From NCBI GenBank assembly GCA_043805415.1, contig JAZDHZ010000007.1:93786-157785 (forward strand): a DNA stretch of 64,000 nucleotides, given 5' to 3'. Position numbers and translations under genes: made by a program. The stretch is from Candidatus Omnitrophota bacterium. GTDB taxonomy: Bacteria > Omnitrophota > Gorgyraeia > B26-G9. Positions 722 to 41,000 of the stretch are shown here, in pieces (the stretch's first letter is position 1; each line of letters starts with the position of its first letter). The notes beneath the pieces were generated by a model. That model had not been told where the DNA came from and did not search any database. It saw only the letters and a list, made by a program, of their open reading frames with translations.

Positions 722-1729
722 CTATTCGCTATCAAAATGACAACTAACCACTAAATGACAATTCCTCCGGCAATTATTTATCTGTTCAATATGCTTATCC
801 ATCTGTTCCGACAGACAAATCCGCTCCAGATTCTGCTTATTTTTTATATTATCGATTATTCCCAGCATCTGGCATTTTGACACATTTCCCGCAGGATCAA
901 TATTCAAAACATTGGCCTGAGCCAAATTACATCTATTGCTTTTAATAAAACTCACGGCATCAAAGAAATATTTTTTAAAAATTTTTAACTGGCCAATGCT
1001 GTCCGCGATTTTATAGCCCTGAGATTTAAACTCAATCAGCTGATTGATTATTCGCTCGATTTCCGGCTTATCGTTTGGCCAAAGGCTCTGATATTCATCA
1101 GACTGAAACCAATACTGATCAGCAGCTTCACTATAAGAAAAAGGCTGGGCTATGGCCTGAAAATTAATATACGCTAAGCGCTTGTCATTTTCCACCCACC
1201 GCGTCAGCTCAATTATATCCAAAAGATTAATCCCGCTGATCACAGTATTAATCCCGATACAAATATCCGGATTACTCTCAGCAATATTTTCAATTGCCTG
1301 TAGAACATGTTCCAATGCCCCGGGTTTGCCTCTGAGAAAATCATGAGTTTTTGGATTTAAACTATCCAGCGAAAAACAAATAAACTTTAAGCCAGAGGCA
1401 GCGATATTCGCTGCGATTTGTTTACTTACATAAAACCCATTGGAAATTAGCTGAATTTGAAGCCCTAAACCAATACCGTGTTTTATTAAATCAAATATAC
1501 CAGCGCGCAGTAAAGGTTCCCCCGGTCCGGAAAAATTAACAATACACTTACCGCGGTCCACAAATTCACTGATTTGCTCTAAAACATTCTTCCATTGTTC
1601 GATGGAAAGAATATTATCCGCGGTTAAAGGACTATCCTGCCAAAATTTGCACATCTGGCATTGAAAATTGCACTCATAGGCAATGCCCAAATCGCAATAT
1701 GTTAATTTTATATTATCTATTTTTTCCAT
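722..1729 (-). CDS. Radical SAM / SPASM-like domain protein (paralog 1 of 4)
   Basis: CxxxCxxC cluster motif C-NFQ-C-QM-C near the N-terminus. Also the GGEPLL-type 'SGPGEPLL' and 'SLDSLNPKTHDFLRGKPGALEHVLQAIENI'. C-terminal Cys-rich region (CNL...C..C..CRRNC..SC) consistent with an auxiliary Fe-S (SPASM/twitch) domain. Confidence 0.85.
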   Translation of the reverse strand: MEKIDNIKLTYCDLGIAYECNFQCQMCKFWQDSPLTADNILSIEQWKNVLEQISEFVDRGKCIVNFSGPGEPLLRAGIFDLIKHGIGLGLQIQLISNGFYVSKQIAANIAASGLKFICFSLDSLNPKTHDFLRGKPGALEHVLQAIENIAESNPDICIGINTVISGINLLDIIELTRWVENDKRLAYINFQAIAQPFSYSEAADQYWFQSDEYQSLWPNDKPEIERIINQLIEFKSQGYKIADSIGQLKIFKKYFFDAVSFIKSNRCNLAQANVLNIDPAGNVSKCQMLGIIDNIKNKQNLERICLSEQMDKHIEQINNCRRNCHLVVSCHFDSE

Positions 1730-1760
1730 TTTCTATTTTCTTTATGTTCTTGTGTCTTGT

Positions 1761-1780
1761 GGCCACGTCACGCCGTGGCC
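1761..1780 (-). other. GC-rich intercistronic hairpin (7-bp stem, 6-nt loop)
   Basis: ggccacg(1761-1767) tcacgc cgtggcc(1774-1780) is a perfect inverted repeat lying between rSAM paralogs 2 and 1. No U-tract follows on the minus strand, so it is not called a terminator. Confidence 0.4.
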
Positions 1781-1803
1781 CTACTATTCGCTATACGCTG
1801 CTT

Positions 1804-2838
1804 TCAATCTTCTTCAAAAAAACAATTGATTAAAAAATGACAGTTTTTCTTACAAGCTTTTATATTCTGCCTGATTATTCCGGCTTTTTCCGAGTTCCAG
1901 ATTATATTTATATCCTCCATCAGACGGATATCTCCGATCGGCTCAAAAGCAAAACAATGATAAATCAGTCCGATGGAACTGATATGTATTGCTTTATCCA
2001 TATTACAGCTGGTTTTTTTCACAAAGCTATCTGGATCGGATAAATACTGTTTCATTGCCTTTAGCTGAGCAATACCGTTATTTATTTTATAGCCTTTAGC
2101 TTTTAATTCTATTAACTGATCAAACAATTCACTGACCCGCTGATTGTTTTTCGGCCATAAAAACCCGTATTTGCCCTTCCACCAGTGTTCTTCCGGCAAA
2201 GTATTATTCGGCTGCATCGGCACAGTCAAAGACACATCTTTGATTTTGGGATTATCATTTACCCATTGCACCAGCTCAATTATCCCAGAATAATTCTGTT
2301 CATAAATCACACTGATCAGGGCTATTTCAATATCCGGCGCGAAACAATGCAGATTATCAATCGCCCGCATCAGCTGCGCGTAAACTCCCTCCACTCCCCG
2401 CAAATAATCATGGGTCTGCCTGTCCATGCTATCCAATGATAGTTTTATAGTTTTTAAACCTGATGCTGCCAAACGTTCGGCAGTATTCTGATCAATTAAA
2501 TATCCATTGGAGACTAAATTTGTGCGCAGTCCGGCTTTATCCGCTGCCGCGATCAGAGCGTAAATATCTTTATGCAGCAAAGCCTCTCCTCCGCCGAAAT
2601 TCAGCACAAAATCCTTGCTCACTATTTTTTTTAACTGATTAAGTAAACTCGCATACTGGCTAAGCGTGGGGAAGCAATCAGCCGCGGTATTTTTAATAAA
2701 AATATCCGGCTGCCATTTATAGCACATCTTACATTTAAGCATGCACTGATCAGTAATCCCTAAAGAAGCGAATTCCGCTTTTTCGCTTATTCGCGCCTGT
2801 TTGATTTGTTCCGGGCTATTATTTAACATATTCTTCAC
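1804..2838 (-). CDS. Radical SAM / SPASM-like domain protein (paralog 2 of 4)
   Basis: CxxxCxxC = C-MLK-C-KM-C. Also 'GGGEALL', 'SLDSMDRQTHDYLRGVEGVY' and the C-terminal Cys cluster (CNMD...C...CKKNC..NC). The start overlaps the stop of the upstream paralog (2819..2838), suggesting translational coupling. Confidence 0.85.
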   Translation of the reverse strand: MKNMLNNSPEQIKQARISEKAEFASLGITDQCMLKCKMCYKWQPDIFIKNTAADCFPTLSQYASLLNQLKKIVSKDFVLNFGGGEALLHKDIYALIAAADKAGLRTNLVSNGYLIDQNTAERLAASGLKTIKLSLDSMDRQTHDYLRGVEGVYAQLMRAIDNLHCFAPDIEIALISVIYEQNYSGIIELVQWVNDNPKIKDVSLTVPMQPNNTLPEEHWWKGKYGFLWPKNNQRVSELFDQLIELKAKGYKINNGIAQLKAMKQYLSDPDSFVKKTSCNMDKAIHISSIGLIYHCFAFEPIGDIRLMEDINIIWNSEKAGIIRQNIKACKKNCHFLINCFFEED

Positions 2839-3841
2839 TTTCGTTAAAGTTGCAGTTAACCAATGACTGACAGTTTTTTCGGCACAATTTTATCTCAGCG
2901 CGCGCCTGTTCTGCGCTCTGACTAAACCAGAGCTCACTGATCCTATTGCTTTTTATATTTCCGATTGCCTGTTTATCAAAGCATATATGCACGTCTCCGG
3001 TAGGCGTAATATTCAGTGCCCGCAGATCAAGATGACAATGATTTTGCTTTATAAAATCATTGGGCTGGGAAAAATATTTACTGAATACGGCAAACTGATC
3101 TTCCGGGTTTTCCAGCACAAAATCCGCGCGCAAATCAGAGCTGTTTTTAAGTTTTGCCAATTGGCACATTGTCTGCCGCACACAATCCTGATCATTGGGC
3201 CATAAAAAAGCGTATTCTGGTTTTTCATACCATTTATCATCAAACTCAGTATTGAACGGCTGGGTAATCGCCTGATAGCCTATGCCGTGAATGCGTTTAT
3301 CTTTATTGGCCCAAAGCGCGACTTCCACCGCGTCTTTGATATTATAACCGGATATTGTGGTTGTAATATCAATAATTATCCGCGGCGCGTATTTAGCCAG
3401 GCTTGCTATAGCCGCCGCAACTTTGTCAAAACTGCCGGGCTTACCGCGGAGAAAATCATGCGTCTTGGGATTAGCTGAATCCAGAGATATGGTTATCTGG
3501 TTTAATCCGGCTTTGGCTAAATCCTCAGCCATCAGGTCATCGAGCAGATAAGCATTTGTTGCCAGCAAAGTCTCAAAACCCTGTTCACGCGCCCAGCTGA
3601 TCAGTTCAATGGTTTCTTTTCTCAGCAAAGGCTCGCCTCCGGCAAAATTAATCCGCGGTTTTTTGGCCAGGCACATCTGCCCCAGATCAGTTATAAACGC
3701 TTTCCACTGGGTAATTGAAGGCTCCCGCGGATCTCTATATTCCACGGAATTATGCCATTTAAAGCACATCTTACAGCGCATAAAACAGCTCTCAAGTAAA
3801 GCAATACAGCAATATGTCGGTAATTTTTTGTTTTCATTCAT
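2819..3841 (-). CDS. Radical SAM / SPASM-like domain protein (paralog 3 of 4)
   Basis: CxxxCxxC = C-FMR-C-KM-C. Also 'AGGEPLL', 'SLDSANPKTHDFLRGKPGSF' and the C-terminal Cys cluster (CHLD...C...CRKNC..NC). Confidence 0.85.
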   Translation of the reverse strand: MNENKKLPTYCCIALLESCFMRCKMCFKWHNSVEYRDPREPSITQWKAFITDLGQMCLAKKPRINFAGGEPLLRKETIELISWAREQGFETLLATNAYLLDDLMAEDLAKAGLNQITISLDSANPKTHDFLRGKPGSFDKVAAAIASLAKYAPRIIIDITTTISGYNIKDAVEVALWANKDKRIHGIGYQAITQPFNTEFDDKWYEKPEYAFLWPNDQDCVRQTMCQLAKLKNSSDLRADFVLENPEDQFAVFSKYFSQPNDFIKQNHCHLDLRALNITPTGDVHICFDKQAIGNIKSNRISELWFSQSAEQARAEIKLCRKNCQSLVNCNFNESEEYVK

Positions 3842-3865
3842 GGAACTTTGTATCCTTGCAACTAG

Positions 3866-3968
3866 CTTATTCCTCGGTCTAGAATCAATTATTTCTGCTC
3901 ATTCTCGCCTTACATCCTGTAAGGCTCCGAGGATAAATCTCTGATTTTGCCAGTCCTAACAAAATCAG
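3866..3968 (-). other. Structured intergenic element (three nested/adjacent stem-loops) between rSAM paralogs 4 and 3
   Basis: Outer imperfect stem ttattcctcgg(3867-3877)/ccgaggataa(3927-3936). Inner perfect hairpin gccttaca(3907-3914)-tcc-tgtaaggc(3918-3925). Adjacent hairpin ctgattttg(3941-3949)-10 nt-caaaatcag(3960-3968). Confidence 0.4.
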
Positions 3969-4084
3969 GCTTTAAACCCGCAAAATAATTATTCTAGCCC
4001 TTTTTACTTTATCCTTTTTACTTTTTACTTCCATCTGTGTTCATCGATATTTTTTATTAGTGTTTATCACAAAAGCTTCTGCTT

Positions 4085-5125
4085 TTACTTTTCAAATTTA
4101 CAGTTAAGCAGGAAATGACAATTTTCCCGGCAATTATTAATTTCTTTTCGCACTAAATCCGCTTTTACGCTCTGCCACATTTCCCGCACTGATTTTTCCC
4201 GCACATCTCCCAAGCATTGATGGCGGTAACACATAAACATATCTCCTACAGAGCTGATATGAATCGCGTGATCAATATTACAGCTGCTCTGCTTCACATA
4301 GGTATCAGGATCAAGCAAATAGGTTTTAAACGCCTGGATATGCTCAATGGGATTACTAATCTTATAGCCTTTTGTTTTCAGCTGAATAAGCTGATCTAAA
4401 ACCGCTTCCGCCTGTTTATAATCCTTAGGCCATAGTTCATTAAACGCCGGGTCTTTCCACCACTGGGTTTGAAGTTCCGTATTATTTGGCTGCATCAGCA
4501 CCATCAGATAAATCATATTGATTTTATTATTTTCCTGAACCCAGTTAACCAGATCAACCATTCCGCCCAGCGTGGGCTGCATAATAATCGAGCAAATACT
4601 GATCTGGATATTAGGCGCGTACGCGTGCACCAGATCAATCGCGTTCATAACCTTATCATAAACCCCGTCAACTCCGCGCAAATAATCATGGGTTTTTCTA
4701 TTAAGACTGTCCAAAGAAATATTGATATAATCAAGCCCGCTGTCGCGCATCTTCTCAACCATTGGTTTATCCACAATGAAGGCATTGGTGGCAATATTGG
4801 TTTTAAACCCCAGTTCATGACAGAACTTAACCAGATCAAACAGCCATGGCACTGTAGTGATTTCTCCTCCCCCGAAATTAATAATAAAATCATTGGGCGC
4901 GATTTTACGCAAAGAAAGAGCGCTCTGTTTCCAGTCGTCAAGCCCCAGCTGTCTGCGATCATCTTTAATGTAAATATCCTGTTTCCACTTTTGACACATT
5001 CTGCAGCCCAGCATGCAATCATCGCAAATACTAAAGCAGCAAAATGTCAGTTTCGGGATCTGGCTGATATTTTCCTTTCTATTAGTAATATTATTCATTA
5101 TTAATCTCCGTAATTGTTTTAACAT
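4085..5125 (-). CDS. Radical SAM / SPASM-like domain protein (paralog 4 of 4)
   Basis: CxxxCxxC = C-MLG-C-RM-C. Also 'SLDSLNRKTHDYLRGVDGVY' and the C-terminal Cys cluster (CNID...C...CRENC..NC). An alternative, better-supported start is the ATG at 5098 (MNNITN...) with GGAG 7 nt upstream. Confidence 0.85.
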   Translation of the reverse strand: MLKQLRRLIMNNITNRKENISQIPKLTFCCFSICDDCMLGCRMCQKWKQDIYIKDDRRQLGLDDWKQSALSLRKIAPNDFIINFGGGEITTVPWLFDLVKFCHELGFKTNIATNAFIVDKPMVEKMRDSGLDYINISLDSLNRKTHDYLRGVDGVYDKVMNAIDLVHAYAPNIQISICSIIMQPTLGGMVDLVNWVQENNKINMIYLMVLMQPNNTELQTQWWKDPAFNELWPKDYKQAEAVLDQLIQLKTKGYKISNPIEHIQAFKTYLLDPDTYVKQSSCNIDHAIHISSVGDMFMCYRHQCLGDVREKSVREMWQSVKADLVRKEINNCRENCHFLLNCKFEK

Positions 5126-9988: not shown

Positions 9989-11277
9989 AGTTTATTTATC
10001 TCCTGAGCAATAACCTTTCCATCAATAATCACATCTTCCATTGACATGTATTTCCATTGCCCAAACCGTCCCACGGGAAAGATATTATTCGCTTTTAAAA
10101 AATCATTCAGCGCCTGCATGCTCAGACGATAATTATGATCATATACAACATAGGCATATTTAATATTATGCGCGTGGGAAACTAAAATAAGATCATCCTT
10201 GGTTAAAATCCCAGCGCTGATCAAATCATTTTGGATTATTTTATTTATATCTTTTTTGGGCAAAGGTTTATTTTCGGAATATGATACTTCCGCGTATAAA
10301 GAACTTTTATTCGCGGGAGCAACATTCTGCGAAAAATTCATCGGAAACCCCAGCCGAAAAAAAACAAACTTATCTTCCGGATAATAAATCCAGTGTTTAT
10401 CACTTATCCGCGGCCGGTCAATGCCCAGATTAAGATTATATATTGAGATATATCTAAGCTGGGAAAACGCGGTTTTTACTTTTTCCGGCATCTTATTAAC
10501 AATTAGTTTCTTTAATTCAATCATCGGCAAAGAACAAATAAGCTGCGTAAACTTTTCGGTTCGGCCATTATTAAATTTTACTGTTTTCTGCTCGAGATCT
10601 ATTGCCTGCGTCTCATGTTCAGTATATATGTTTTTGACCTGGTTAGCAAAAGCTTTTGCCAGCTGATCAATTCCCCCGGTTTGCGGATACCAGAATTCAC
10701 TATTATAACCCAAGGCTTTGGTTTTTAAAGTAAATGCTCCATCCAGGACTGTTTTTATTTTTACCTGAGGAACATAATTCACTGTCCAATCAGCTATAAG
10801 CTCTTGCGGCGGCACAGTCCAAAATTTATAGTTATAGGGATACATGAAATATTTTGTTATCCCCTTGCCAAACCTATCTAACATCCACTCGTAAAGATTT
10901 TGCTGGTCATTATCTTTTGTTTTCAATGAGGCTTTGAGCATTCCGAGAATGCATTTTTTTACTATTTGCAAAGGCAAGCCAAAAGTATTTGCCTGAAAAG
11001 GATATTTCGTATAGATATCATGAGAGTAAATCCAGGCATTACGCTTATGGCTAGATAATAAATCCGGCAAAAGTTTATTAATTAATTGTTTAACATAATT
11101 GGTTTTAAAATGCAGAAGATGCCCATCATAATCAAAAATAAAACCATTCACCAAATCAGTGCGGGCAAGACCGCCGACCTGGTCTTCTTTTTCAAATATC
11201 TTAACTTCATCCTGAATATGAAAAGCAGTGCTTAATCCAGCAAGCCCAGCACCTAAAATTATAATTTTCTTACTCAT
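9985..11277 (-). CDS. FAD/NAD(P)-binding oxidoreductase, UDP-galactopyranose-mutase / amine-oxidase-like
   Basis: N-terminal Rossmann motif KIIILGAGLAGLSTA (GxGxxG) followed by 'IFEKEDQVGG'. The C-terminal 'GRFGQWKYMSMEDVI' resembles the Glf-family C-terminus. 4-nt ATGA overlaps with both neighbours. The exact activity is not determinable. Confidence 0.6.
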   Translation of the reverse strand: MSKKIIILGAGLAGLSTAFHIQDEVKIFEKEDQVGGLARTDLVNGFIFDYDGHLLHFKTNYVKQLINKLLPDLLSSHKRNAWIYSHDIYTKYPFQANTFGLPLQIVKKCILGMLKASLKTKDNDQQNLYEWMLDRFGKGITKYFMYPYNYKFWTVPPQELIADWTVNYVPQVKIKTVLDGAFTLKTKALGYNSEFWYPQTGGIDQLAKAFANQVKNIYTEHETQAIDLEQKTVKFNNGRTEKFTQLICSLPMIELKKLIVNKMPEKVKTAFSQLRYISIYNLNLGIDRPRISDKHWIYYPEDKFVFFRLGFPMNFSQNVAPANKSSLYAEVSYSENKPLPKKDINKIIQNDLISAGILTKDDLILVSHAHNIKYAYVVYDHNYRLSMQALNDFLKANNIFPVGRFGQWKYMSMEDVIIDGKVIAQEINKL

Positions 11278-12290
11278 TCATTTATTTCCAATCGGCTTAA
11301 TTTCATTCCGACTAAACACATAATGCTAATAACCAATAAAAACATAAATAAACCCAAAGTATTTGAACCGAGAAAAATCACTAATGCGCAGCAATTAGTG
11401 ATAATCGCCAGGATGATCATTATCCGCAATATCGATCCCTTGGAAATTCCGATTTTAAGCATTCTGAATACAAAATGATCATTACTTTTCATAAAAATAG
11501 ATTTTTTTTGCCTAAACCGCACAAAAATAACAAAAAGCATATCAAAAAGCGGTAAAGCCAGGATTACTAGAGGGATAACCAAACCGATTTCATGACCTGT
11601 GGGCGCGAAACTTAATGATATTGCCATTACTGCCAGGGAAAACCCCAAAAACTGACTGCCCGCATCACCCATAAATATCCGCGCCGGAGGCAGATTATAT
11701 TTTAAAAAAGCAATTAAAACCGCACACTGAAGTCCGGCGATAAGGATAACAAAATGATTGTTTGTTAAAACCGCAAAAATCAAAAAAACAATCGTACTGA
11801 TTAAAGCCACGCCCCCAGCCAGCCCATCAAGTATATCCAGCAGATTAAACGCGTTAATCAATAAAATAATCCAGAAAAAACTCAAAACTATATTAAAAAA
11901 AGTGTTCAGATAAACAATCTCTGTTCGCATCACAAAACCAATTAGCAGCATTGCCCCGAGGAATTGCCCTGCCAGTTTTTCCCTGGGATTCATTTCTTTA
12001 ATATCATCATAAAAGCCAAGCAATGTGATAATCGCGGCTGCCAGCATAAACATACAGAATCCAAATAAGTCAATCGAGAAACAAGGAAAGCGGACAAACG
12101 CGAAACCAAGAATTAAAAACACACTGAACATGCCGATTCCGCCAAGATAAGGAACCTGTCTTGGATCTATTTTTTGCGGAGCAGGACCAGTAACAAAACC
12201 CTTAGCTTTCGCGAATTTTTCCAACAAGGGCAATAAAAAATAGCATAAGCCAAAAGCACTGATAAATAATAAACCAATAGTACTGGACAT
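11274..12290 (-). CDS. Glycosyltransferase family 4 polyprenyl-phosphate sugar-1-phosphate transferase (WecA/MraY family)
   Basis: Polytopic membrane protein with the family motifs 'FYDDIKE', 'NAFNLLDILDGLAGG' and 'FMGDAGSQFLGF'. It is the first gene of the glycan-export operon. Confidence 0.8.
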   Translation of the reverse strand: MSSTIGLLFISAFGLCYFLLPLLEKFAKAKGFVTGPAPQKIDPRQVPYLGGIGMFSVFLILGFAFVRFPCFSIDLFGFCMFMLAAAIITLLGFYDDIKEMNPREKLAGQFLGAMLLIGFVMRTEIVYLNTFFNIVLSFFWIILLINAFNLLDILDGLAGGVALISTIVFLIFAVLTNNHFVILIAGLQCAVLIAFLKYNLPPARIFMGDAGSQFLGFSLAVMAISLSFAPTGHEIGLVIPLVILALPLFDMLFVIFVRFRQKKSIFMKSNDHFVFRMLKIGISKGSILRIMIILAIITNCCALVIFLGSNTLGLFMFLLVISIMCLVGMKLSRLEINE

Positions 12291-12625: not shown

Positions 12626-13009
12626 TTATGACGACAGCTCTAATCCTTCGAGAAAATCATCAACAATTTTTTTATTCTGGTCATTTTTCCACCAGGAAAA
12701 GCTTATCCCTGATCTATATTTATCAGCATCCTGGTAAGTCCATTCCACTTTGCCGAAAACTCTTATTGGGCTAATAGTTTCATTTAGTAAAATATCTATA
12801 CTTAGACGTGTGCCAACAGCCATTGTTTCTTTTGAATAAATTCCTGCGCCGAAAAGAGTAAAATCCCGCAAAAAGCATTCTGTTCCGTTCCAATAGCGAA
12901 ACCATGCCTGCGGATCTAAGGGCCTAACCTGTACAGCTGATTTATCAGCTAATTTTCTTATATTCGCTCTCTGTTCCTTTGCGATAATATCCATATTTTT
13001 TTGCTCCAA
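12626..13009 (-). CDS. Stand-alone PilZ domain protein (putative c-di-GMP receptor)
   Basis: RxxxR (R-ANI-R) followed by a D-x-S/T-x-x-G-type motif (DFTLFGAG). About 55% identical by eye to the PilZ gene at 37540..37899 (shared RPLDPQ.WFR.WN, IRVFGKVEW, SFSWWK). Confidence 0.75.
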   Translation of the reverse strand: MEQKNMDIIAKEQRANIRKLADKSAVQVRPLDPQAWFRYWNGTECFLRDFTLFGAGIYSKETMAVGTRLSIDILLNETISPIRVFGKVEWTYQDADKYRSGISFSWWKNDQNKKIVDDFLEGLELSS

Positions 13010-13262: not shown

Positions 13263-13937
13263 TTATTTAGGCAGGGAAATTGTAGCAGTATAGTCATTTT
13301 TGTAAAATTCAGGGTTTGTTGTTTGTGTGCCCATGCCCATTTCTATGGTAATCAATACTTCTATCTTGCTCGGCGCTCCGTCAGTTCGTGAATCCCAGTC
13401 AATGAATGGAGCTCCGGAGCTGTCAAAAAAAGTAAATTGTAAATCAGTGATATTTTCGGAAAATGGATCGCTTGATCCAGTATTAAAATTAAAATCAAAA
13501 CCAACCGGATCTAAGGTTTTTCTACCGTCAGTAACATAAAATCTTTCTAATACATCATCATTTAATTCCGCGGTTCCCTGCCCATCCAGCCAGAATCCAA
13601 CTTCACATAAATCGGATTTATCAGCTTCATTTGGATTTAAAGCAGCAATAAAATAAAGTTCATCGCCAATGCTATCTGTTCTCCATCCGCTGGGAGTGGT
13701 TTTATCAAATCCTAAACAATAAAAATTATTACCTTCTCTAATCACCGCGCTGGAAATCTCTCGAGTCATTCGATCTAAAACAACCCGCGCGATAGTCGTA
13801 GATTTTAAAATATTATCCGCCTTTTTCCAAGCACGCAAAGAAACATTAAAAACCGAATACAAAATCGCTATCAGTAAAGCAAGAATTCCGATAGAAACTA
13901 AAAGCTCAATCAGGGTAAATCCTTTTTTTAAAACCAT
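13263..13937 (-). CDS. Type II secretion / type IV pilus-like pseudopilin (GspJ/PulJ-like)
   Basis: Prepilin-type N-terminal cleavage/methylation motif KKG|FTLIELLVSIGILALL followed by 'VVLDRMTREISSA', as in minor pseudopilins. The start overlaps the stop of the upstream gene. Confidence 0.75.
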   Translation of the reverse strand: MVLKKGFTLIELLVSIGILALLIAILYSVFNVSLRAWKKADNILKSTTIARVVLDRMTREISSAVIREGNNFYCLGFDKTTPSGWRTDSIGDELYFIAALNPNEADKSDLCEVGFWLDGQGTAELNDDVLERFYVTDGRKTLDPVGFDFNFNTGSSDPFSENITDLQFTFFDSSGAPFIDWDSRTDGAPSKIEVLITIEMGMGTQTTNPEFYKNDYTATISLPK

Positions 13938-16278: not shown

Positions 16279-18231
16279 CTAAAATATATTATACTCCTCT
16301 TTGGCAAAAATTGCAAAATTAGTGCCCGCGGCTGAGATTGAGCCGCTATCCGGCGTATACCAGCCATGTCCGGTATCAACAGCGCTATTACTGGCATAAG
16401 GCAAGCCTCCGCTGCCTTTGCTTAAACCAAAGGCTGAACGCACAAGCATCAGTTTTTCCAGCTCGCCCAGATAATAATCCGCTCTGCGCTCATATTTATC
16501 CGCCTTAGCCGGATCTGATTGCTGTTTATAAAAACTGCTGATCTGGCGAAAAGCGACAACCATTTGCGCTGTCCATTCTACTGAAATTGTTCCGCTTCTG
16601 CTGATGCTTGAAGGCGCGCAAAAATCAAAACCGCTTATGTTTATTTTTTTGCCTGAAATATTTTTAACATTTATAGTGGTCTTGCAATTTTCCTCCGCGC
16701 AGTCGATCAGATCATCAATTGTAACTCCCATATCTTCCAGTCCTTCCGGGCCAAAAGCCATAATGCTCAGGGCAATCGTATCAGTCGCGATCATCCGATC
16801 ATCAGTACCGCGATTAAATCTTTTTAATGTTTTATTATAAGCGGTATCTTTAAGCCAGCCATGTATTTTCCGCGCGGCCAGAGCATAGCGCTGATCATGC
16901 TCGGTTTTAAATAGGGTTTTAAAAAATATATACGCGGCAATATTCTGCTCTGTACCGGCCCAACTAACCTGAGGCCCTCCCGGCAAAGATCCATCACTAT
17001 TTTTGTTTTGCAAATCAAGCAGCCAATCAGCTATTTCATAAACCAGTTTGCTATAGGTATTTTTACCAGTAGCTTGTTCATAACGCATAATTGCCAGGCC
17101 TAAATAGATAACTGGTCCGGTGTGCACAATATATTCTGAAACATTGCCGGTAATTACATCATAGGCATTAGCAAACCCGCCTTGAACTTTTTTAGCGCGG
17201 TTATTAAAAAAATCAAAAATAAGTTCCGCCTTTTCAAACTGTTTAAAATTAATAAAATTAAACGCGCTCAGAGCCTGGTCATAAGTAAATCCGACATCGA
17301 TTAAAGCATGATCATTATCATAACTTACAATAAGCCCGGTCTTACTGCTTTGCGAAGCAATAAGCCATTGCCGCATTAAATCCAGAGTCTTATCTTCTAA
17401 AACAACTCTTTTATCACTGATTTTCTCAAGCTTGGTCTCCAAAACAGCCTGGGTATCAGTGTATTTATTAAGCTTAGTCTGCATCTTTTGTTTTTCCGCG
17501 AATAAGTCAGCGAGCTGTTTTTTTAGCTTGCTTTGATCTACCAGCAATTTTTCAACTTCTTCAGTATTCTGCTCGCCGGCTTGCTGATTTTTAAGCGTCT
17601 CGATCTTTGCTAATTTTTCCTTCATCTGATTTTCCGCTTTTGAACTATTATTCAGCATATTGGCTAAAATAAACTTTTCCGCTTTAATTTTATCCAGTTC
17701 TTGGTTTACCATAAACTGTTCATCATTTAACTGTCCCAGATGCTGAACAAGTAAACTATTATCGCGGGTAAGCCGGATATTGTCATAAGCTAAAAACCCG
17801 CAAAATAAGACTAATAGCAAACCAGCCAAAGCAATCATCCGCGGAATAGCCAGCATAATCTTAGCAAAACGGATTATGCGTTTTTGTTCAACTTGATCAA
17901 TCGCTTCATACGCTAATCCGAGCATATAACTTTGGGGATAGGGAGCGGCGGTTTTTTTTGACCAGGCAACACGCGCGATGGCTTTAATTGGGTTTTGGGT
18001 TAAGGGAATATTTAAAAATACTTGAAGTTTGTTTTTGTTGTTTTTCAGTAATTCAGTATGCTCCTGGCTTAAACTGTTTATTTCCACGCATACACCTGAA
18101 AAACTTACGTCCCGGGTAAACCCCTGCATTAAATCGCTGATCGGCTTATTTTGAGCATCAACTATTTTTAATTCAACCGGAAATATCTTATTGAGCCGAA
18201 CGTATTTTCTTTGATCATTTATCATAGGCAA
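16279..18231 (-). CDS. PilZ - TM - coiled coil - alpha/alpha-toroid-like domain protein (C-terminal domain paralogous to giant ORF aa ~2605-3040)
   Basis: The N-terminus has RxxxR (R-KYV-R) and DVSFSGV (DxSxxG), followed by a TM segment (LAIPRMIALAGLLLVLFCGFLAY) and a Q/K/E-rich coiled coil. The C-terminal ~350 aa align motif-by-motif with the giant ORF: FTYDQAL/FTYDLAL, LQNKNSDGSLPGGP/LQDEDGGIRQGP, TEQNIAAY/TEENINAF, ATDTIALSIMAFGPE/ATDVNALAVIVLGPE. Confidence 0.7.
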   Translation of the reverse strand: MPMINDQRKYVRLNKIFPVELKIVDAQNKPISDLMQGFTRDVSFSGVCVEINSLSQEHTELLKNNKNKLQVFLNIPLTQNPIKAIARVAWSKKTAAPYPQSYMLGLAYEAIDQVEQKRIIRFAKIMLAIPRMIALAGLLLVLFCGFLAYDNIRLTRDNSLLVQHLGQLNDEQFMVNQELDKIKAEKFILANMLNNSSKAENQMKEKLAKIETLKNQQAGEQNTEEVEKLLVDQSKLKKQLADLFAEKQKMQTKLNKYTDTQAVLETKLEKISDKRVVLEDKTLDLMRQWLIASQSSKTGLIVSYDNDHALIDVGFTYDQALSAFNFINFKQFEKAELIFDFFNNRAKKVQGGFANAYDVITGNVSEYIVHTGPVIYLGLAIMRYEQATGKNTYSKLVYEIADWLLDLQNKNSDGSLPGGPQVSWAGTEQNIAAYIFFKTLFKTEHDQRYALAARKIHGWLKDTAYNKTLKRFNRGTDDRMIATDTIALSIMAFGPEGLEDMGVTIDDLIDCAEENCKTTINVKNISGKKINISGFDFCAPSSISRSGTISVEWTAQMVVAFRQISSFYKQQSDPAKADKYERRADYYLGELEKLMLVRSAFGLSKGSGGLPYASNSAVDTGHGWYTPDSGSISAAGTNFAIFAKEEYNIF

Positions 18232-34835: not shown

Positions 34836-34938
34836 AGTTATGAATTATAAGTTATGGGTTGGCGAGTTTGCCAGTTAGGAAAGCAGCGAGTAGTGTTTAG
34901 GACTTAGCGTAAAGTGATCCATAGTCAATAGCTAATAG
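34836..34938. repeat. Member of the dispersed 7-bp-periodic repeat family
   Basis: gttatga attataa gttatgg gttggcg ... tccatag(34918-34924) tcaatag ctaatag(34932-34938). The first 20 nt are nearly identical to 634..658. Confidence 0.6.
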
Positions 34939-35037
34939 AAAAATGGAAGATGGGAAAAACTAAAAAAGTTTATAAATAAAACCAGAACTCGTGAACGCGC
35001 TAACGCGCAAACTGGTTAACACTATTGGTTAACACTA

Positions 35038-35151
35038 CTAATTTACATTTACCAATTTACCCAGATACTCTCCCACTAATTGATTATCTTTTACTTCTTC
35101 ATACCCTTTGATTATTAATATTAAATCCCGAACAATCTGCCCATTAGCCAT
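35038..35151 (-). pseudogene. Decayed 3' remnant of a third PilZ paralog (37-codon ORF)
   Basis: Manual translation of the minus strand from the ATG at 35151 gives MANGQIVRDLILIIKGYEEVKDNQLVGEYLGKLVNVN*. The last ~17 aa match the PilZ C-terminus ...DQDKQLVNEYLGKLLNIN* (37540..). The nucleotide match is visible too: ctaatttacatttaccaatttacccagata vs ttaatttatatttaataatttacccagata. Confidence 0.55.
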
Positions 35152-35159
35152 AATGTAAA

Positions 35160-36059
35160 TTATTCTGTTACCAGTTCAAACCTAGTCCCACTTTCCATAG
35201 CGTTATTAATTCTGGTAAGAGCCTTATCTAGACTGAAATTATCCCGCTCATTGAGCGACAAAACATCAAATAGCTCTGCTTCAATGCGTGAATTCATATC
35301 TTTTATTTCTTCATCTGATCTGCCAAGATTTTTTCTGTATTTAACTAAATCTGTATCGGCATCATCCTCCTGAAGTTTCTTTTTAAACAGCGTCATTACT
35401 TCTTTATCTGCTAAATCAAACTTATTGCGAAGAATAAAGTCAATATCGTAGAAATCGCGCGGAGCTATAATTTGACGTGTCGCGCCTGCGCGTAACTTTT
35501 CTGAAACAATCTCTTTTAGTGACATACACTGAATCTCGCCACTAGCAAACAATGGCTCATCAGTAAAAGAGTGTTTGAATTTATGCTGTACCGCTCTTTT
35601 TTCAGTGTCTAAAATAGGGTTAAATTTCAAACCTACTTCAAATTTAATTGTCTGCTCAGAAAGTGTTGTAACAGAATCATATACGATATGGTACACATAC
35701 TGCTTTGATTCATTTCTCCCGGGATTACCGGCATCATCAATCCTCATGCTAAATTGCTTCACAAACCTCTCAATACCATTCTTAACCGGCTGGATGCATT
35801 TACGCCTCTCACCTCGTGTAGCTTGATACCGCGGAAGCATCATACTAAAATCAAGATCTTCACTCAAACGATAATATGAATAATATATCTTATTGAGACA
35901 GGTTCCTCCTTTAAAAATAAGATTACCTGACAATTCATGTATACGAGAAAGCAGTAATGTTAAATAATAATCTTTTTCTATCAGCGGCGCATAAAATCCC
36001 GTTAATGACGCGATACGATCAATAAGAATAAAAAATTGTTCTTTATCTTCGTGTATCAT
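35160..36059 (-). CDS. abiEii: AbiEii/AbiGii-family nucleotidyltransferase toxin (type IV toxin-antitoxin)
   Basis: Family motif 'FKGGTCLNKIYYSYYRLSEDLDF' in a 299-aa protein, immediately downstream of and overlapping an AbiEi-like gene. Confidence 0.8.
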   Translation of the reverse strand: MIHEDKEQFFILIDRIASLTGFYAPLIEKDYYLTLLLSRIHELSGNLIFKGGTCLNKIYYSYYRLSEDLDFSMMLPRYQATRGERRKCIQPVKNGIERFVKQFSMRIDDAGNPGRNESKQYVYHIVYDSVTTLSEQTIKFEVGLKFNPILDTEKRAVQHKFKHSFTDEPLFASGEIQCMSLKEIVSEKLRAGATRQIIAPRDFYDIDFILRNKFDLADKEVMTLFKKKLQEDDADTDLVKYRKNLGRSDEEIKDMNSRIEAELFDVLSLNERDNFSLDKALTRINNAMESGTRFELVTE

Positions 36060-36856
36060 TAATAATAATTCTCCATTTTTTATTTAACGTACCTTTTCTT
36101 GATTCTGACAATGAGGCAATCGACGTTTCTTTGACACTTTTTACAAGTGATCTCAATAATAGATCACTAATTCCACATTTTTCCAATATGTACCCCATAT
36201 ACTTACGAGTCTTTATATTGGGAAACCGAGTCGCATAGTCAATAAGCGTTTTTATGTCACATTTTTTTTCTGTTACAAACCTCTCTACTATCTGGCCTGC
36301 GGCAAAAAAACCGCCTACCGGCTTATTAAAATAAATAAGATCAACCAATGTTTTTTCTTTTGAACTAATGCAAACATTAACGCCTCTTATAATTTTTTTT
36401 TTCAATCCCATACATTTGAGCCCGAGACACATTTATAAACTTAAACAGAATTCCCGCAATCTTTTTTTCCTTGCTCAAGCTCGTATTAAGAACATACACT
36501 TTCTGGAATTGCTGATCTGTAAAGCTGTAATAGTTAAACATTGTAGAATATCCAATATAGTAATCCCCCTTAGGAAAATAAATTGATGGTATTATAAACT
36601 CACTAATACGGCGTCCTGTAGGAACTGATTCAAGAGGAACAAATATATATATGCCGCTTTTAATAGGAATTAAAATATTTTTTGTTTTTAACCTGAATAC
36701 AAGTTGTCTTCTATAAGAAAAATCAGCAGGCAAAAAAGCATCCAACTCTTTTGCTGTTACGATCTCTTTTTTTTCATAGACAAGCCGCGCGATAAGTTCT
36801 GTCTCTGTTTGACTAAGCGAACTAAATGTTTTTTTATTTGGCATATGTACCCCCAC
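36043..36856 (-). pseudogene. abiEi: AbiEi-family antitoxin, split into two ORFs by a +1 nt expansion in an A10 homopolymer
   Basis: ORFs 36377..36856 and 36043..36432 together are the length of a typical AbiEi. They join at plus T-run 36393-36402. Removing one A gives the continuous ...AQMYGIEKKIIRGVNVCISSKEKTLVDL.... This could be a real frameshift or a homopolymer sequencing error. Confidence 0.65.
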
Positions 36857-36914
36857 AGTTACATTGAACTAACGATAATACATTAATATAGTAACATATA
36901 AGACTTATAAGTCA

Positions 36915-36947
36915 ATGGAAAACTGTATTACATGGAAAACTGTATTA
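36915..36947 (-). promoter_or_regulatory. Tandem 16-bp direct repeat (17-bp period) upstream of abiEi; candidate operator overlapping a TTGACT -35 box
   Basis: atggaaaactgtatta occurs at 36915-36930 and again at 36932-36947. On the minus strand the proximal copy abuts TTGACT. The repeat lies about 60-90 nt upstream of the ATG at 36856. Confidence 0.4.
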
Positions 36948-37333
36948 TTAAAGCCGCAAAAAAATGCTCATACTATAATTCTTTATATTAATTACCTCTA
37001 CTACATTATTAATATTCAATCCTAAACAATCTGCTCAAAATAAAAAGCACACAAGAGCAGCGTATAGCGAAAAGGAATGTTCATTAGTTAAAAGTTTATA
37101 AAGTGAAAGGCGGAAAGCGTAAACTACTTAGCTGATGGCTCTTGGGAAAAACAGGAAAAACAGATAGAGTAAAAGTTTGTAAAGTTCTCGAGTTTAGCGA
37201 TTGGCGGGTCACAAGAAAAGTCACCAGGACACAAAAAAAATAGTATTGAGCATTGCGTAAAACCGAAGGATGAGAGACGATCGCTGCGCTAGGACGACGG
37301 ACGGAAAAGCAGGAAGCATAAAAAACATGCTGG

Positions 37334-37368
37334 CTCATGGCTAATAGCTGATAGCTAATGGTCAATGG
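37334..37368. repeat. Heptanucleotide array (5 units) of the CTANTAG family
   Basis: ctcatgg ctaatag ctgatag ctaatgg tcaatgg. The surrounding ~37060-37440 also shows weaker 7-nt periodicity (e.g. tattgcg tatcgcg tattgag tatagcg). Confidence 0.7.
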
Positions 37369-37473
37369 TAAAAAAATAAAGAAAATAGTATTGCGTATCG
37401 CGTATTGAGTATAGCGTAAAGCAAAAAGAGCTTAGCGGATATCCCTTCGACTTCGCTCAGTGTAAAGATTACA

Positions 37474-37513
37474 AGCAAAAAAAGCATGAAGCTTATTGCT
37501 AGCTTCATGCTTT
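37474..37513 (-). terminator. Rho-independent terminator ending the giant-ORF/PilZ transcription unit
   Basis: A perfect 13-bp stem (37481-37493 / 37501-37513, core agcatgaagct/agcttcatgct) with a 7-nt loop. On the minus strand it is followed by a T7 run (plus A-run 37477-37483). It lies 27 nt after the PilZ stop. Confidence 0.8.
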
Positions 37514-37539
37514 AAAGTATTTTATACTAAATATTATAA

Positions 37540-37899
37540 CTAATTTATATTTAATAATTTACCCAGATATTCATTAACCAACTGTTTATCCTGGTCGTCT
37601 TTCCACCAGGAAAAACTAACTCCGGTTCGATACATTCCAGCATCTTCGGTTATCCACTCCACCTTACCGAAAACCCGGATTGTACTAATATCCTTGCTCA
37701 GGCGCAAGTCAATGCTTAACGGCGTGCCAATCGGTATTCTTTCATTGGAAACCACTCCCGCGCCAACCATGCTGATATCGCGCATGGAATATTCTGCGCT
37801 GTTCCAAAACCTGAACCATACCTGAGGGTCAAGCGGGCGAAGACTTATTGAACTGTTCTTAGCTTCCTTGCGTGCGCTATTGCGTCTATCCTTATCCAT
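37540..37899 (-). CDS. Stand-alone PilZ domain protein immediately downstream of the giant ORF
   Basis: RxxxR (R-NSA-R) and DISMVGAG (DxSxxG). AAGGAG RBS ~9 nt upstream of the ATG at 37899. Paralog of 12626..13009. Confidence 0.75.
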   Translation of the reverse strand: MDKDRRNSARKEAKNSSISLRPLDPQVWFRFWNSAEYSMRDISMVGAGVVSNERIPIGTPLSIDLRLSKDISTIRVFGKVEWITEDAGMYRTGVSFSWWKDDQDKQLVNEYLGKLLNIN

Positions 37900-37919
37900 T
37901 GTGATTACTCCTTTATCAG

Positions 37920-37996
37920 CCTATGGCTGATAGCTTATGGCTAATGGCTCATAGCTTATAGTTTTTTACTATTGACTATTAGCTATTGACTATCGA
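37920..37996. repeat. Inverted pair of heptanucleotide arrays in the giant-ORF/PilZ intercistronic spacer
   Basis: cctatgg ctgatag cttatgg ctaatgg ctcatag cttatag | tttttta | ctattga ctattag ctattga ctatcga. The two halves are approximately reverse-complementary, so the RNA could form a long imperfect hairpin with an A/U loop. Confidence 0.75.
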
Positions 37997-38024: not shown

Positions 38025-41000
38025 TTAAATCGCATTATTAACAAGCTCTCTGGTATCTTCCGGTGATAACTTCTTATCGACACCAGGGATTGCAGCATCC
38101 AAAGCATCTACAGTTGCCGGATCAGCCTCAGGCTTAATTATCATTTCTGGGGTTAAGTCAATTATCTCTTCCCCTTCTTTAGCATCAGGCTTACCGTCTT
38201 TTACCATATCAGTAGGCTCAGTTACTTCTTCCTCTGAAGCCTGGATTTCTGCCGGTGCCGGAGAGATAGCTTCATCGTTTATTGATGATGTTTCATTTTT
38301 AAGAGTATAAGTTAACAATTCTGCCTTGGCTAAAATACCTGTTAAAGTGCGGATTGCCTTTTCAATGCCTTGTTGTTCCCAATATTGTGTTAACCTGTAA
38401 GAATCTTCACGGAATTTTTCGATTTGTTTACCTGCATACTCCATAATATCCTGAGGAGTATTTAGTTTTTTTCTATCTCCCCCATCAAAAATAATATGCA
38501 TACTATCATAGTATCCAATTCTGTCTGATAACTCACCCCACATAAAATATATTTCTTGGTTAAGCGCTTCTATTTTCTGCTCCAGACTTTGCTCGGGCTT
38601 TGTTTCCTCAGAAGAAACCTCAGCAGCTTGTTCTGTAGCATCAGCTGGCTCCACATTTTGATCTGCGCTTACTGCGGAATCTGTTTCATCTGTATTATAA
38701 CTTGTATCAGTTACCGCAGCAGGCAGATTATTTCCACCATTTTGATCCTGCGGACCATTAGGTGGCTTACTATCAGTAGATGATTGACCTTGGCTAGCAG
38801 CAGCTTCTTGGGCTTTAGCCTGCTCAGCTTTCTCTTTATCCTCTTGTTGTTTTCTAATCTTAGTATCTTCCGCTTCACCAAGTTTCTTAATTTCAGTCTG
38901 TATGGCGATACCTAATTTATTATCCACGTCTTTTTTAATCTGCACAGAATTACGCTTTGCAGCAAACATCATATCTTTTGCTGCCTGATCATCTCCTGCC
39001 AAATCCTTATAGCTTTCTTTAACTTCGTCCGGCATAATTGCCCACAAAGAATCTTTAAGCAGTTTTTCATTACTTTCCTTGCTTATTAAATTATACATTT
39101 GCAATGCCGTTTCGCTATTTTTGCTGATCAGCTCCTGGGCGATCTTGGCTGGTTTTGCGCCTTCTCTGTATTCTTCAATCTGCGCTCCATCTACATTCTC
39201 AAAGGTCAGGATTTCATCCTCTGCCTCTACCTGCATCCAGAAAACTATTTTATTAAATAAATAAAGTTTTGCCTGATCTTTATTAAATGCTTGCACAAAA
39301 CCATTTGGAATCATATCCTGAGCAGTCATCAAAGCCAGCAGATCTTCAACTACTTTTTCTTTCGCATCCAAAGCATCATTCCGCGCGCCTCTTATACCTG
39401 TTCTATTCTGTGCAATAAAATCATTTACCGCACTAGTGATAAGAAATTTTCCGTCATAGACTTTACCAAATTGACCAAGATAAACATTTTCAAAATATTC
39501 TTGCATGAGTTTTAAGAGCGATGCTTTTGGATTTTCCTCCTTATTCAAAACATACTTAATATAAGGATCTACGCCAACAGCATTCCAGATCAAATCAATA
39601 TTATCCGGCACCTGCATAGCCAGAATTAATGATTCCATGTTATTTAAAACTAATGCAGGGATATTATCCTGTTTAATATCATTAATCAGATATTTCATGA
39701 GCTGATTCGCAATAATCTCTTTCTGATTGTCTTGATATTTCTCTATTATAGTATTCTGTTTACTTGAGATTGCCTGCTTTAAATTAGTTATTTCATCTTC
39801 AATCGCTTTTTGACGCGAAGCATCTTCTGTTATTTTAAGCTCTTTCTCAAGAGCGCTGAGAAGCTTCATTCTCTGGTCAATTTCTTTATTTTCATTTGCT
39901 CCGGTAGTCAATACTATCATCTGAAAAACAATACGCTCAAGATCATCTCCAGCTTCATTCCATATAACCGCATACAGGTTTTCTCTTAATTTGCTAAGCG
40001 CTGTTTTGTATTTCTTCTCTATTTCTTTTTTCTCTTCATCGCTGCCTGCGGCTTTTAACTGCTTATTGAATGCCTCGTTTAATGTAATCTCCCGCGGGAT
40101 CAGTTCCTTTAACACGTTTTTGTATTTAAATACGATCATAGGCATATCAAAATCAACCACCCTTTGATATTGACTCTTTATTGTTTCATCAGTTTTTTTA
40201 TTTAATTGTTCAAGCAGGTACTTGTTTATTTCCTGTTCATCAAAATTATTAGCCATAAGCAGAAAATATACAGCTTCCTGAGGTAATTGCTGCCAAAGAG
40301 CTTTAATTGATTCCGCTTGATTAGCGATATATTCATCCTGAGATATTTTTGACCCGTCCTTATTCATGTATTGAACGCGGTTATCGATCTCTTTTTGTGT
40401 GAATGCCGATAGTTTTTCCGGTAAAACAATGTTTTCAAAAGCAAATTTATAATTATTAACAAACTGCGCATCAGCAGTAAACAGCTCTGCGAATAAGGCT
40501 TCTGCTGCCTGTTCTTGATCTATTTGATAATCATTTGACCAGAGTTTCTTTTGATCCGCGTCTAATTTGTTCCATATCTCTGTCTTTAATTTATTTTTAA
40601 GCTCTACATCTTTTTGTTTATCCGCTATATATTTACCAATATCGCTTTTAATTCCTTGATATTTCGCATCTAAAAATATCTTGCCCAGAATATCAATCTT
40701 AGACATTTGTTTCGCGGCAATCAGCGCATCTGCAGCTGCTTTTTCCAAACTAAATTTCTCTGTTGTTTCCTTCTGGATTTGAGCACTTTTCGCATCAAAT
40801 TCTTGCGCTTTATTTATTTTCCCTTCTAACTCCGCATTCCGCAAATCCTTAGATCTCTGGAAGAAATAGCTCGGACGCGGACTATAGCGCTGAATAATTC
40901 CTTCAAAAACCAAAAAGCCCAAGAGTAGACCTAATCCCGCTATAAAATTCGGCGCGAATATAAGAATAGCCAGAAACTCAATAATATAACGCGCCGGCCG

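Follow-up and report, generated by a model that had tools for sequence, protein, structure and literature searches.

The 64-kb window analysed here, a stretch of contig JAZDHZ010000007.1 from a Candidatus Omnitrophota bacterium, carries a giant gene in company with three genes for PilZ domains, which are candidate receptors of cyclic dimeric guanosine monophosphate (c-di-GMP). According to the list of open reading frames (ORFs), all substantial ORFs of the window lie on the minus strand. Read in this direction, the 3′ part of the giant ORF is followed by the small gene for PilZ2, by about 2.5 kb of DNA with an AbiEii gene, and by the genes for a 1191-aa and a 1422-aa protein; then come an MFS_2 transporter, a 630-aa GH2_C/GH72-like protein, two small paralogous proteins (208 and 229 aa), a 429-aa GH2_C-like protein, a 607-aa PKD/TPR protein, the PilZ-fused protein, a 767-aa protein, a pseudopilin, PilZ1 and, in the array downstream of PilZ1, a GT4-family glycosyltransferase, an FAD amine-oxidase-like protein, an ABC-2 permease, a 1351-aa ABC ATPase and four radical-SAM proteins (Table 1). 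In Pfam scans, the 1191-aa protein shows HEAT/DUF218 matches, and the 1422-aa and 767-aa proteins have no match. The giant ORF matches Helicase_C, Peptidase_M23 and LysM, with weak matches to GH76 and GT2_3, and so has matches, two of them weak, for the SecA-like helicase, peptidase, glycoside hydrolase and glycosyltransferase domains that mark Archaeovorin-type giants. Homologous giants are present in four of the related loci fetched for comparison, which are designated by L numbers (L001, L009, L010 and L015). Also as in other loci of this type, the small pilZ gene is followed by a sugar transporter gene and glycoside hydrolase genes, here MFS_2 and two GH2_C-like genes, and the order giant, pilZ, transporter, glycoside hydrolase recurs in L005, L015, L017 and L022.

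A first, sequence-only reading of this DNA had counted four PilZ elements and proposed scans with hidden Markov models (HMMs) as a check. Three of the elements are genuine domains, all above the gathering score of the Pfam PilZ family (PF07238, 22.5 bits; Table 1), whereas the fourth (35038-35151) is an insertion scar, as described below; a six-frame scan of the window with HMMs of the small and the fused PilZ families revealed no further PilZ domains. Read directly from the sequences, the RxxxR motif is RNSAR in PilZ2, RANIR in PilZ1 and RKYVR in the fused protein, and the [D/N]hSxxG motif is DISMVG, DFTLFG and DVSFSG, respectively. According to the survey by Galperin and Chou, these two motifs define the canonical, ligand-binding PilZ domains. 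The claim that all intact copies keep both of them extends to their homologues: an alignment of 24 small PilZ proteins has R6, R10, D41 and G46 without exception, and the motif Ser is kept in 20 of them, is replaced by Thr in the PilZ1 subgroup (3/3 PilZ1-type sequences) and by Asn in one. The fused protein was aligned with its relatives in a set of 40 homologues; all 37 that are ungapped at the N-terminus carry RxxxR, and the second motif begins with Asp (23) or Asn (17), has Ser (32) or Gly (8) at the third position, and ends in Gly throughout (40). HMM scores and motifs mark the three PilZ domains as canonical, and the predicted folds, at moderate model confidence, agree with this. Between the small PilZ proteins and the PilZ domain of the fused protein the kinship is distant (cross-HMM E-values of ~0.002-0.1); neither is a recent copy of the other.

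The closest association with the giant gene is that of PilZ2, which starts 125 nt beyond the stop of the giant ORF. As the sequence-only reading had described, the gene directly follows the giant and is itself followed by a strong terminator, a hairpin whose 13-bp stem is accompanied by a T-run. PilZ2 has a good ribosome-binding site, the gap contains no promoter-like site, and the terminator comes after the gene; PilZ2 probably forms the last cistron on the transcript of the giant gene. An AlphaFold2 (AF2) model of PilZ2 (mean predicted local distance difference test, pLDDT, 65.6) consists of strands plus a helix at residues 105-116, and its structural matches in Foldseek are almost exclusively PilZ structures. 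The best of them (among these 5vx6, 4p00, 2rde, 4xrn and 4rt0; Foldseek probability 1.0, E-values 4e-3 or worse) are the c-di-GMP-binding PilZ domains of MotI, BcsA, VCA0042, MrkH, PA4608 and Alg44.

The neighbourhoods of small-PilZ homologues, scanned in one genome per species, indicate that this arrangement is conserved. PilZ2-type genes occur in 13 distinct loci including the window, and 11 of them directly follow a giant ORF, which for this count means an ORF that is open through all of the upstream sequence at hand (2574 to 3327 codons); in loci with gene calls, the products annotated upstream of PilZ2 orthologues measure 5,512 to 13,301 aa. The gap between giant and pilZ is 14-326 nt across the 11 loci. 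Over their last 3200 aa, the giants form at least four groups that resemble one another little or not at all, and the order of giant and PilZ2 is kept nevertheless, which makes a functional link between the small PilZ2 and the giant envelope protein credible. The proposed pairing of small PilZ proteins with very large envelope proteins thus holds for PilZ2, but not for PilZ1, whose neighbours are the genes for a 224-aa pseudopilin and for the GT4 protein.

PilZ1 was previously described as a 127-aa protein that ends a sugar/pseudopilin operon. A PilZ gene does lie at this place, but its likely start is the ATG at 12994, nine bases past a GGAG ribosome-binding site and inside the ORF 12626-13009, which gives 122 aa, and it stands alone between intergenic gaps of 268 and 335 nt, with a sigma-70-like site (12507-12479) between it and the GT4 gene. 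The position between pseudopilin and GT4 genes is shared by the PilZ1-type genes of all four loci in which they occur (window, L003, L004=L019 and L020). PilZ1 and PilZ2 share 53% identity over 113 aa (E 1e-47), close to the earlier estimate of ~55%, and both paralogues lie ~22 kb apart on one contig of a second genome (L013 and L019), as in the window. The deeper-branching orthologues in L005 and L017 are about equally distant from PilZ1 and PilZ2; PilZ1 is therefore a later duplicate of PilZ2 that is confined to a sub-lineage. A general rule that PilZ elements "punctuate" each large unit of the locus is not supported, and the idea is only half right: PilZ2 is clearly terminal, but PilZ1 stands alone, the fused gene is internal to its array, and the fourth element is a scar.

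The third PilZ domain is fused to the N-terminus of a 648-aa protein for which the sequence-only reading had suggested a toroid. The fusion is borne out by the Pfam match at residues 6-122, and the toroid by structure prediction: an AF2 model built from 40 sequences (pLDDT 91.2) consists of a barrel (residues 8-110), a very long helix (111-217), a return helix (221-290) and an (alpha/alpha)6 toroid (290-648). The best matches of this model in the Protein Data Bank (PDB) are cellobiose, glucose and N-acetylglucosamine 2-epimerases together with GH76 mannanases (Foldseek E ~2e-9 to 1e-6), which confirms the toroid. Within the long helix, the hydrophobic stretch IALAGLLLVLFCGFLAY (residues ~132-148) was read by eye as a putative membrane helix. 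The protein has 232 detected homologues, nearly all of the 120 listed being full length; among the matches listed, the source labels are almost all Omnitrophota/Omnitrophica, with one from the PVC-group and one from Ratteibacteria. The fused gene is an inner member of a closely packed array, 38-54 nt away from the gene on either side, amid genes for GH2_C/GH72-like (TIM-barrel) hydrolases and a sugar transporter. The block of a glycoside hydrolase gene, two small genes, a second glycoside hydrolase gene and the PilZ::toroid gene is also found beside a homologue of 35% identity in L024, there with an ABC sugar importer. In L006 (19276-20360), separate PilZ and toroid ORFs might be taken for a gene fission of the "Rosetta stone" kind. 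This candidate was rejected, because a deletion of ~88 aa has taken away the last part of the barrel together with the membrane helix and leaves two ORFs, of 99 aa and of at least 473 aa, so that there is no clean split; the L006 orthologue is a degraded copy or an assembly error.

Upstream of the 1191-aa gene, a "decayed third copy" of the small PilZ gene had been proposed. Only ~63 nt of this region (35037-35099) are pilZ-like, corresponding to HMM positions 99-119, and they are not a third gene paired with the 1191-aa gene, but the displaced 3′ end of PilZ2 itself. In the closest relatives, L010/L011 and L012, whose PilZ proteins are 82% identical to that of the window, the intact pilZ 3′ end and its downstream spacer are colinear with window positions 35088-34939 (83% and 75% identity), and the alignment runs on into 34866-34802 (for the spacer of L012, 34854-34802). 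The remnant is therefore the original 3′ end of PilZ2. In a four-way alignment, AGTGTTAACCAGTTTGCGCGTTAGCGCGTTCACGAGTTCT after the remnant's stop is nearly identical to the post-pilZ sequence in L010 and L012, whereas the sequence behind the intact PilZ2 of the window is unrelated to it. Moreover, the remnant peptide DNQLVGEYLGKLVNVN matches the C-terminus of the orthologue P0002 (DKHLVGEYLGKLVNVN) at 14/16 positions, and this C-terminus is closer to the remnant than to that of PilZ2 itself. The ancestral order was therefore giant gene, pilZ, spacer, 1191-aa gene, and a segment of ~2.5 kb later entered the 3′ end of pilZ, bringing a replacement 3′ end with it. The ORF block of the insert lies between 33-nt direct repeats (35111-35143 and 37005-37037, 88% identical). 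Ahead of AbiEii, in antitoxin position, are two overlapping ORFs of 159 and 129 aa, which could be one frameshifted gene; neither has a Pfam match. The insert contains no recombinase gene, and no AbiEii match was found in L012 and L013, the two closest relatives with contigs that reach past pilZ.

The site just after pilZ is an apparent hotspot of mobile DNA in other loci as well. IS200/IS605-type Y1 transposase genes follow pilZ in L001 (10551-11189) and L009 (14077-14745), the latter with an internal pilZ fragment (13795-13896) beside the transposase gene, and L015 has a similarly placed 218-aa ORF (~10463-11119), a candidate transposase gene by its position. Six contigs (L007, L008, L010, L011, L012 and L016) stop ~185-600 nt past pilZ.

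Table 1. Features of the window; for the ~35-nt element, positions in related loci are added.
Feature	Position	Strand	Remarks
Giant ORF, 3′ part, 8657 codons	38025..63998	-	5′ end beyond window
PilZ2, 119-aa stand-alone PilZ, last cistron (probable) after giant ORF	37540..37899	-	Pfam 39.3 bits; identical to P0001
Intrinsic-terminator-like hairpin after PilZ2	37481..37513	-	13-bp stem, 7-nt loop, T-run
PilZ1, 122-aa stand-alone PilZ	12626..12994	-	Pfam 23.7 bits; identical to P0028
PilZ::TM::coiled-coil::(alpha/alpha)6-toroid protein, 648 aa (TM, putative transmembrane helix)	16279..18225	-	PilZ domain ~17866-18216 (aa 6-122), Pfam 32.4 bits; identical to a database protein
Displaced ancestral pilZ 3′ end (scar; last 17-20 codons plus stop)	35038..35099	-	75% identical to 37539-37601
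Inserted segment, ~2.5 kb	35100..37539	.	New terminator, short repeats, two overlapping ORFs, AbiEii
AbiEii toxin gene in insert	35160-36059		Pfam E 3.3e-28
Pseudopilin gene, 224 aa	13263..13937	-	Pfam N_methyl E 3.3e-7; N-terminus KKGFTLIELLV; upstream neighbour of PilZ1
GT4-family (Glycos_transf_4) gene	11274..12290	-	Pfam E 6.3e-35; first gene of array downstream of PilZ1
Tandem small secreted-protein paralogues, ~210-230 aa	21608-23022	-	Signal peptide; no Pfam match
~35-nt conserved element	37264-37323; L003/L004 10529-10567; L019 10469-10507; L020 10459-10512; L012 10516-10564	- (window)	
ATAGCTAATGG / ATAGCTGATAG-type repeats	37914-37996, 37328-37362, 37129-37145, 34918-34938		

The analysis leans towards reading the locus as an Archaeovorin-type giant-gene locus in which the three canonical PilZ domains act as c-di-GMP receptors, a scheme in which we infer that the domains bind c-di-GMP, which proteins they act on and in which direction they regulate. 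PilZ2 would be a soluble, single-domain, c-di-GMP-dependent adaptor that docks on a cytoplasmic part of the giant membrane protein, or on its export apparatus, and switches its deployment or activity. PilZ1 might relay the same c-di-GMP signal to the pseudopilin array or to the GT4/ABC-2/ABC array, which could be read as a Wzm/Wzt-like array for glycan export. The 648-aa protein would be a single-pass membrane receptor, with a cytoplasmic PilZ domain, a coiled-coil hairpin and an extracytoplasmic (alpha/alpha)6 carbohydrate-active domain, and might couple cytoplasmic c-di-GMP to glycan processing outside the membrane, with an Alg44-like topology and a LapD-like inside-out logic. A c-di-GMP switch wired to the giant gene would, if true, provide a concrete and testable regulatory handle on giant surface proteins. 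It is quite doubtful whether one may go further and regard the PilZ::TM::coiled-coil::toroid architecture as a new class of inside-out c-di-GMP transducer, which would switch an extracytoplasmic glycan enzyme and, together with PilZ2, arm a predation or attachment apparatus of the Omnitrophota, which are uncultured and probably predatory or parasitic nanobacteria.

Several observations weigh against the proposed role of the three domains as c-di-GMP receptors. A regular-expression search found no GGDEF signature in the window or in 22 related loci, and the window has no match to a c-di-GMP riboswitch or to any other Rfam family. PilZ1 barely exceeds the Pfam cut-off and has Thr where the motif has Ser, the PilZ2 model reaches a pLDDT of only 65.6 with all Foldseek E-values above 1e-3, and a profile of the small-PilZ family found no PilZ in the PDB by sequence. 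The family is also narrow: in a search of 1.84 billion representatives of clusters at 50% identity, three clusters were found at E<=1e-30, a fourth at 1.5e-28 and the next at 2e-18, so that its function would be lineage-specific. In L006/L021 and L016, the PilZ2 orthologue follows proteins of 544 and 584 aa instead of a giant, and a distant homologue of the fused protein in L023 has an unrelated neighbourhood.

The proteins can be compared with known PilZ receptors at several points. The single-domain MapZ/PA4608 of P. aeruginosa and the two-domain MotI/DgrA of B. subtilis are stand-alone PilZ adaptors. Like these, the small PilZ proteins have ~120 aa and an RxxxR loop at the N-terminus, with a beta-barrel and a C-terminal helix predicted at moderate confidence, and the PilZ2 model has adaptor structures (5vx6 and 4xrn) among its best matches. 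Unlike the known adaptors, they have no detectable sequence match to a solved PilZ and carry invariant Trp-rich motifs (LRPLDPxxWFRxW and SFSWWKDDQDK), and the genomic context of PilZ2 gives no chemotaxis or flagellar partner of the MapZ or MotI kind. For the fused protein, the closest parallels are Alg44, an alginate co-polymerase composed of a PilZ domain, a membrane helix and a periplasmic domain, and BcsA with its C-terminal PilZ domain: here, too, a putatively cytoplasmic PilZ domain with canonical motifs would be linked across the membrane to an envelope glycan machine. In contrast to Alg44, the outer domain is not HlyD-like, but an epimerase/GH76-like (alpha/alpha)6 toroid that follows a coiled-coil hairpin of ~140 aa. 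The proposed control of a periplasmic output domain by a cytoplasmic c-di-GMP receptor domain across one membrane would resemble LapD, which, unlike the fused protein, works by a degenerate GGDEF-EAL module, a HAMP relay and protease sequestration, and to which there is no homology.

In a rival reading, the PilZ proteins would control glycan synthesis, export or import in the manner of BcsA or Alg44/Alg8, and not the giant protein itself, which is a possibility worth entertaining, if not a likely one. PilZ2 would then gate a membrane-embedded GT2-like region near the C-terminus of the giant (encoded by about 40068-44198), and PilZ1 the export by the GT4/ABC-2/ABC products, directly upstream of whose genes it lies. 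The Alg44-like topology of the fused protein fits this idea, as does the presence of the BcsA and Alg44 PilZ domains among the best structural matches of the PilZ2 model; the giant itself has a weak match to Glyco_trans_2_3 and a pattern, noticed by eye (SED...LQWRMPP...KWAAG), that recalls the TED/QxxRW of processive GT2 synthases. However, the match scores 19.5 bits, under the Pfam cut-off of 27, and the giants of L005, L007, L013, L017 and L022 show little or no similarity to the GT2-like region within their last 10 kb. No sequence evidence for a GT48- or GT2-type core in the giant was found: neither the single sequence nor a 5-sequence profile of the region found a glycosyltransferase in the PDB. 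BcsA/Alg44-like gating of a glycosyltransferase in the giant is thus, though attractive, a weakly based proposal.

It is very improbable that the small PilZ proteins are instead c-di-GMP-independent adaptors of the ATPase of a type II secretion system (T2SS) or type IV pilus (T4P), like P. aeruginosa PilZ (PA2960) or Xanthomonas XAC1133 with PilB, which would serve the secretion system that the preprint by West-Roberts et al. places upstream of giant genes. A pseudopilin gene adjoins PilZ1, T2SS/T4P loci flank giant genes according to the literature, and PilZ-PilB and PilZ-FimX complexes appear in the Foldseek list of PilZ2 (ranks 25 and 28), but they rank under the c-di-GMP-binding PilZ domains. 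The PA2960/XAC1133 class, the non-binding type II of PilZ domains, lacks RxxxR and [D/N]hSxxG (Galperin and Chou), whereas the small-PilZ family of the window has both and conserves them; since both binding motifs are invariant, a c-di-GMP-independent, pilus-type role is unlikely. Besides, Pfam scans found no GspE/PilB ATPase gene in the window, where a single pseudopilin gene, downstream of the giant gene, is all that is visible of a type II/IV secretion-like locus. Equally improbable is a clustering without organisational meaning, by which local duplication would have produced PilZ1 from PilZ2 amid the traffic of mobile elements at the pilZ 3′ end, and the PilZ proteins would serve unrelated, global c-di-GMP outputs. 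The restriction of PilZ1 to a sub-lineage would agree with such an origin, as would the equal distance of the L005 and L017 orthologues from both paralogues, the many contigs that break directly past pilZ, and the rearrangement or occupation of the post-pilZ site by mobile genes (AbiEii here; Y1 transposases in L001, L009 and, by position, L015). Yet the position after giants is kept across divergent genomes with unrelated giant C-terminal regions, and the fused family stays in the same glycan-processing block at 35% identity; because synteny is conserved, accidental clustering is unlikely.

The preprint by West-Roberts et al. (bioRxiv 10.1101/2023.11.21.568195, Fig. 7C) reports that most Omnitrophota giant genes have a small pilZ gene directly behind them and interprets this in terms of c-di-GMP; it also describes genes for transporters and glycosyl hydrolases beyond pilZ, GGDEF domains in many Archaeovorins, and T2SS/T4P-like secretion loci upstream of the giant genes. 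The core observation and its interpretation are therefore already published, and the PilZ receptors of the window are canonical-looking new members in a known type of locus. The window shares with the loci of that preprint, as far as these are described there, the phylum and the order of giant, small pilZ, sugar transporter and glycoside hydrolase genes; it differs in that its transporter belongs to the major facilitator superfamily (MFS) and is not a binding-protein-dependent ABC importer, and in that the part of the giant within the window has no GGDEF domain, unlike many Archaeovorins. What is added here are motifs that argue for c-di-GMP binding, the division of the small PilZ proteins into paralogues, the well-modelled, putatively membrane-spanning PilZ::toroid family and the correction of the scar; the passages on pilZ in the preprint make no mention of the PilZ1 paralogue, of a PilZ::TM::toroid family, of conservation at motif level or of the insertion scar. 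A 2026 preprint reports secretion, pilus and GH2-type genes as well as mobile-element flanks at giant loci, and leaves PilZ unmentioned. In keyword searches, two PilZ-diversity surveys, one of them that of Galperin and Chou, mention neither glycoside hydrolases nor epimerases; the words "transmembrane" and "periplasmic" are absent from Galperin and Chou, and "transmembrane" from the other survey.

Other recurrent features were noted at the giant genes and their neighbours. The giants end in a tail (...EDTRELVNNAI) that was considered as a docking peptide for PilZ. This was rejected: many other large proteins of these loci, with no pilZ gene beside them, end in the same kind of tail, which is therefore a general tag, not a PilZ-specific one. 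The C-terminal pattern [LIVF][LIVA]xx[AGS][IVA] is present in the giant (..ELVNNAI, stop at 38025) and in the 1191-aa protein (..ALVGQAI, stop at 31140), with a near variant in the 1422-aa protein (..PRIESAI, stop at 26830). Of 232 stop-terminated stretches that measure 150 aa or more in the window and 24 loci, 29 end in it, including giants with otherwise unrelated C-terminal regions, and all occurrences are on the coding strand, which is that of pilZ in the fetched loci and the minus strand in the window. The pattern may be a sorting or secretion tag. At the other end, a common leader (..L[LV]LIN.FL.LDIAWAGGTEL..; window 34715 to ~34520 and 31098 to ~30900) forms the N-termini of the 1191-aa and 1422-aa proteins and also heads otherwise different large proteins in L009 (18337-18531), L013 (15112-15303), L015 (11591-11788) and L016 (7389-7580).

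Among the genes of the two arrays, the tandem of small secreted proteins, with two to three paralogues, always lies between two GH2_C-like genes, both in the window and in L005 (15606-17901), L006 (14115-16242) and L017 (15514-17763). The array from GT4 to the radical-SAM genes is syntenic in L003 and L019, and it ends in four tandem paralogous radical-SAM genes (722-5125), 3/4 with a SPASM match.

The DNA around the small pilZ genes contains two kinds of short sequence elements. A conserved element of ~35 nt (CTGCTTTT.TCGTCC.TCGTCCTAGCG.AGCGATCGTCT) is found 100-250 nt past pilZ genes of the PilZ1 and PilZ2 types alike, in different genomes; the window contains it once, and Rfam has no match to it. 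PilZ2 is flanked by short repeats of the ATAGCTAATGG / ATAGCTGATAG type, some direct and some inverted, which return in the spacers of this region and look like repetitive extragenic palindromic (REP) elements.

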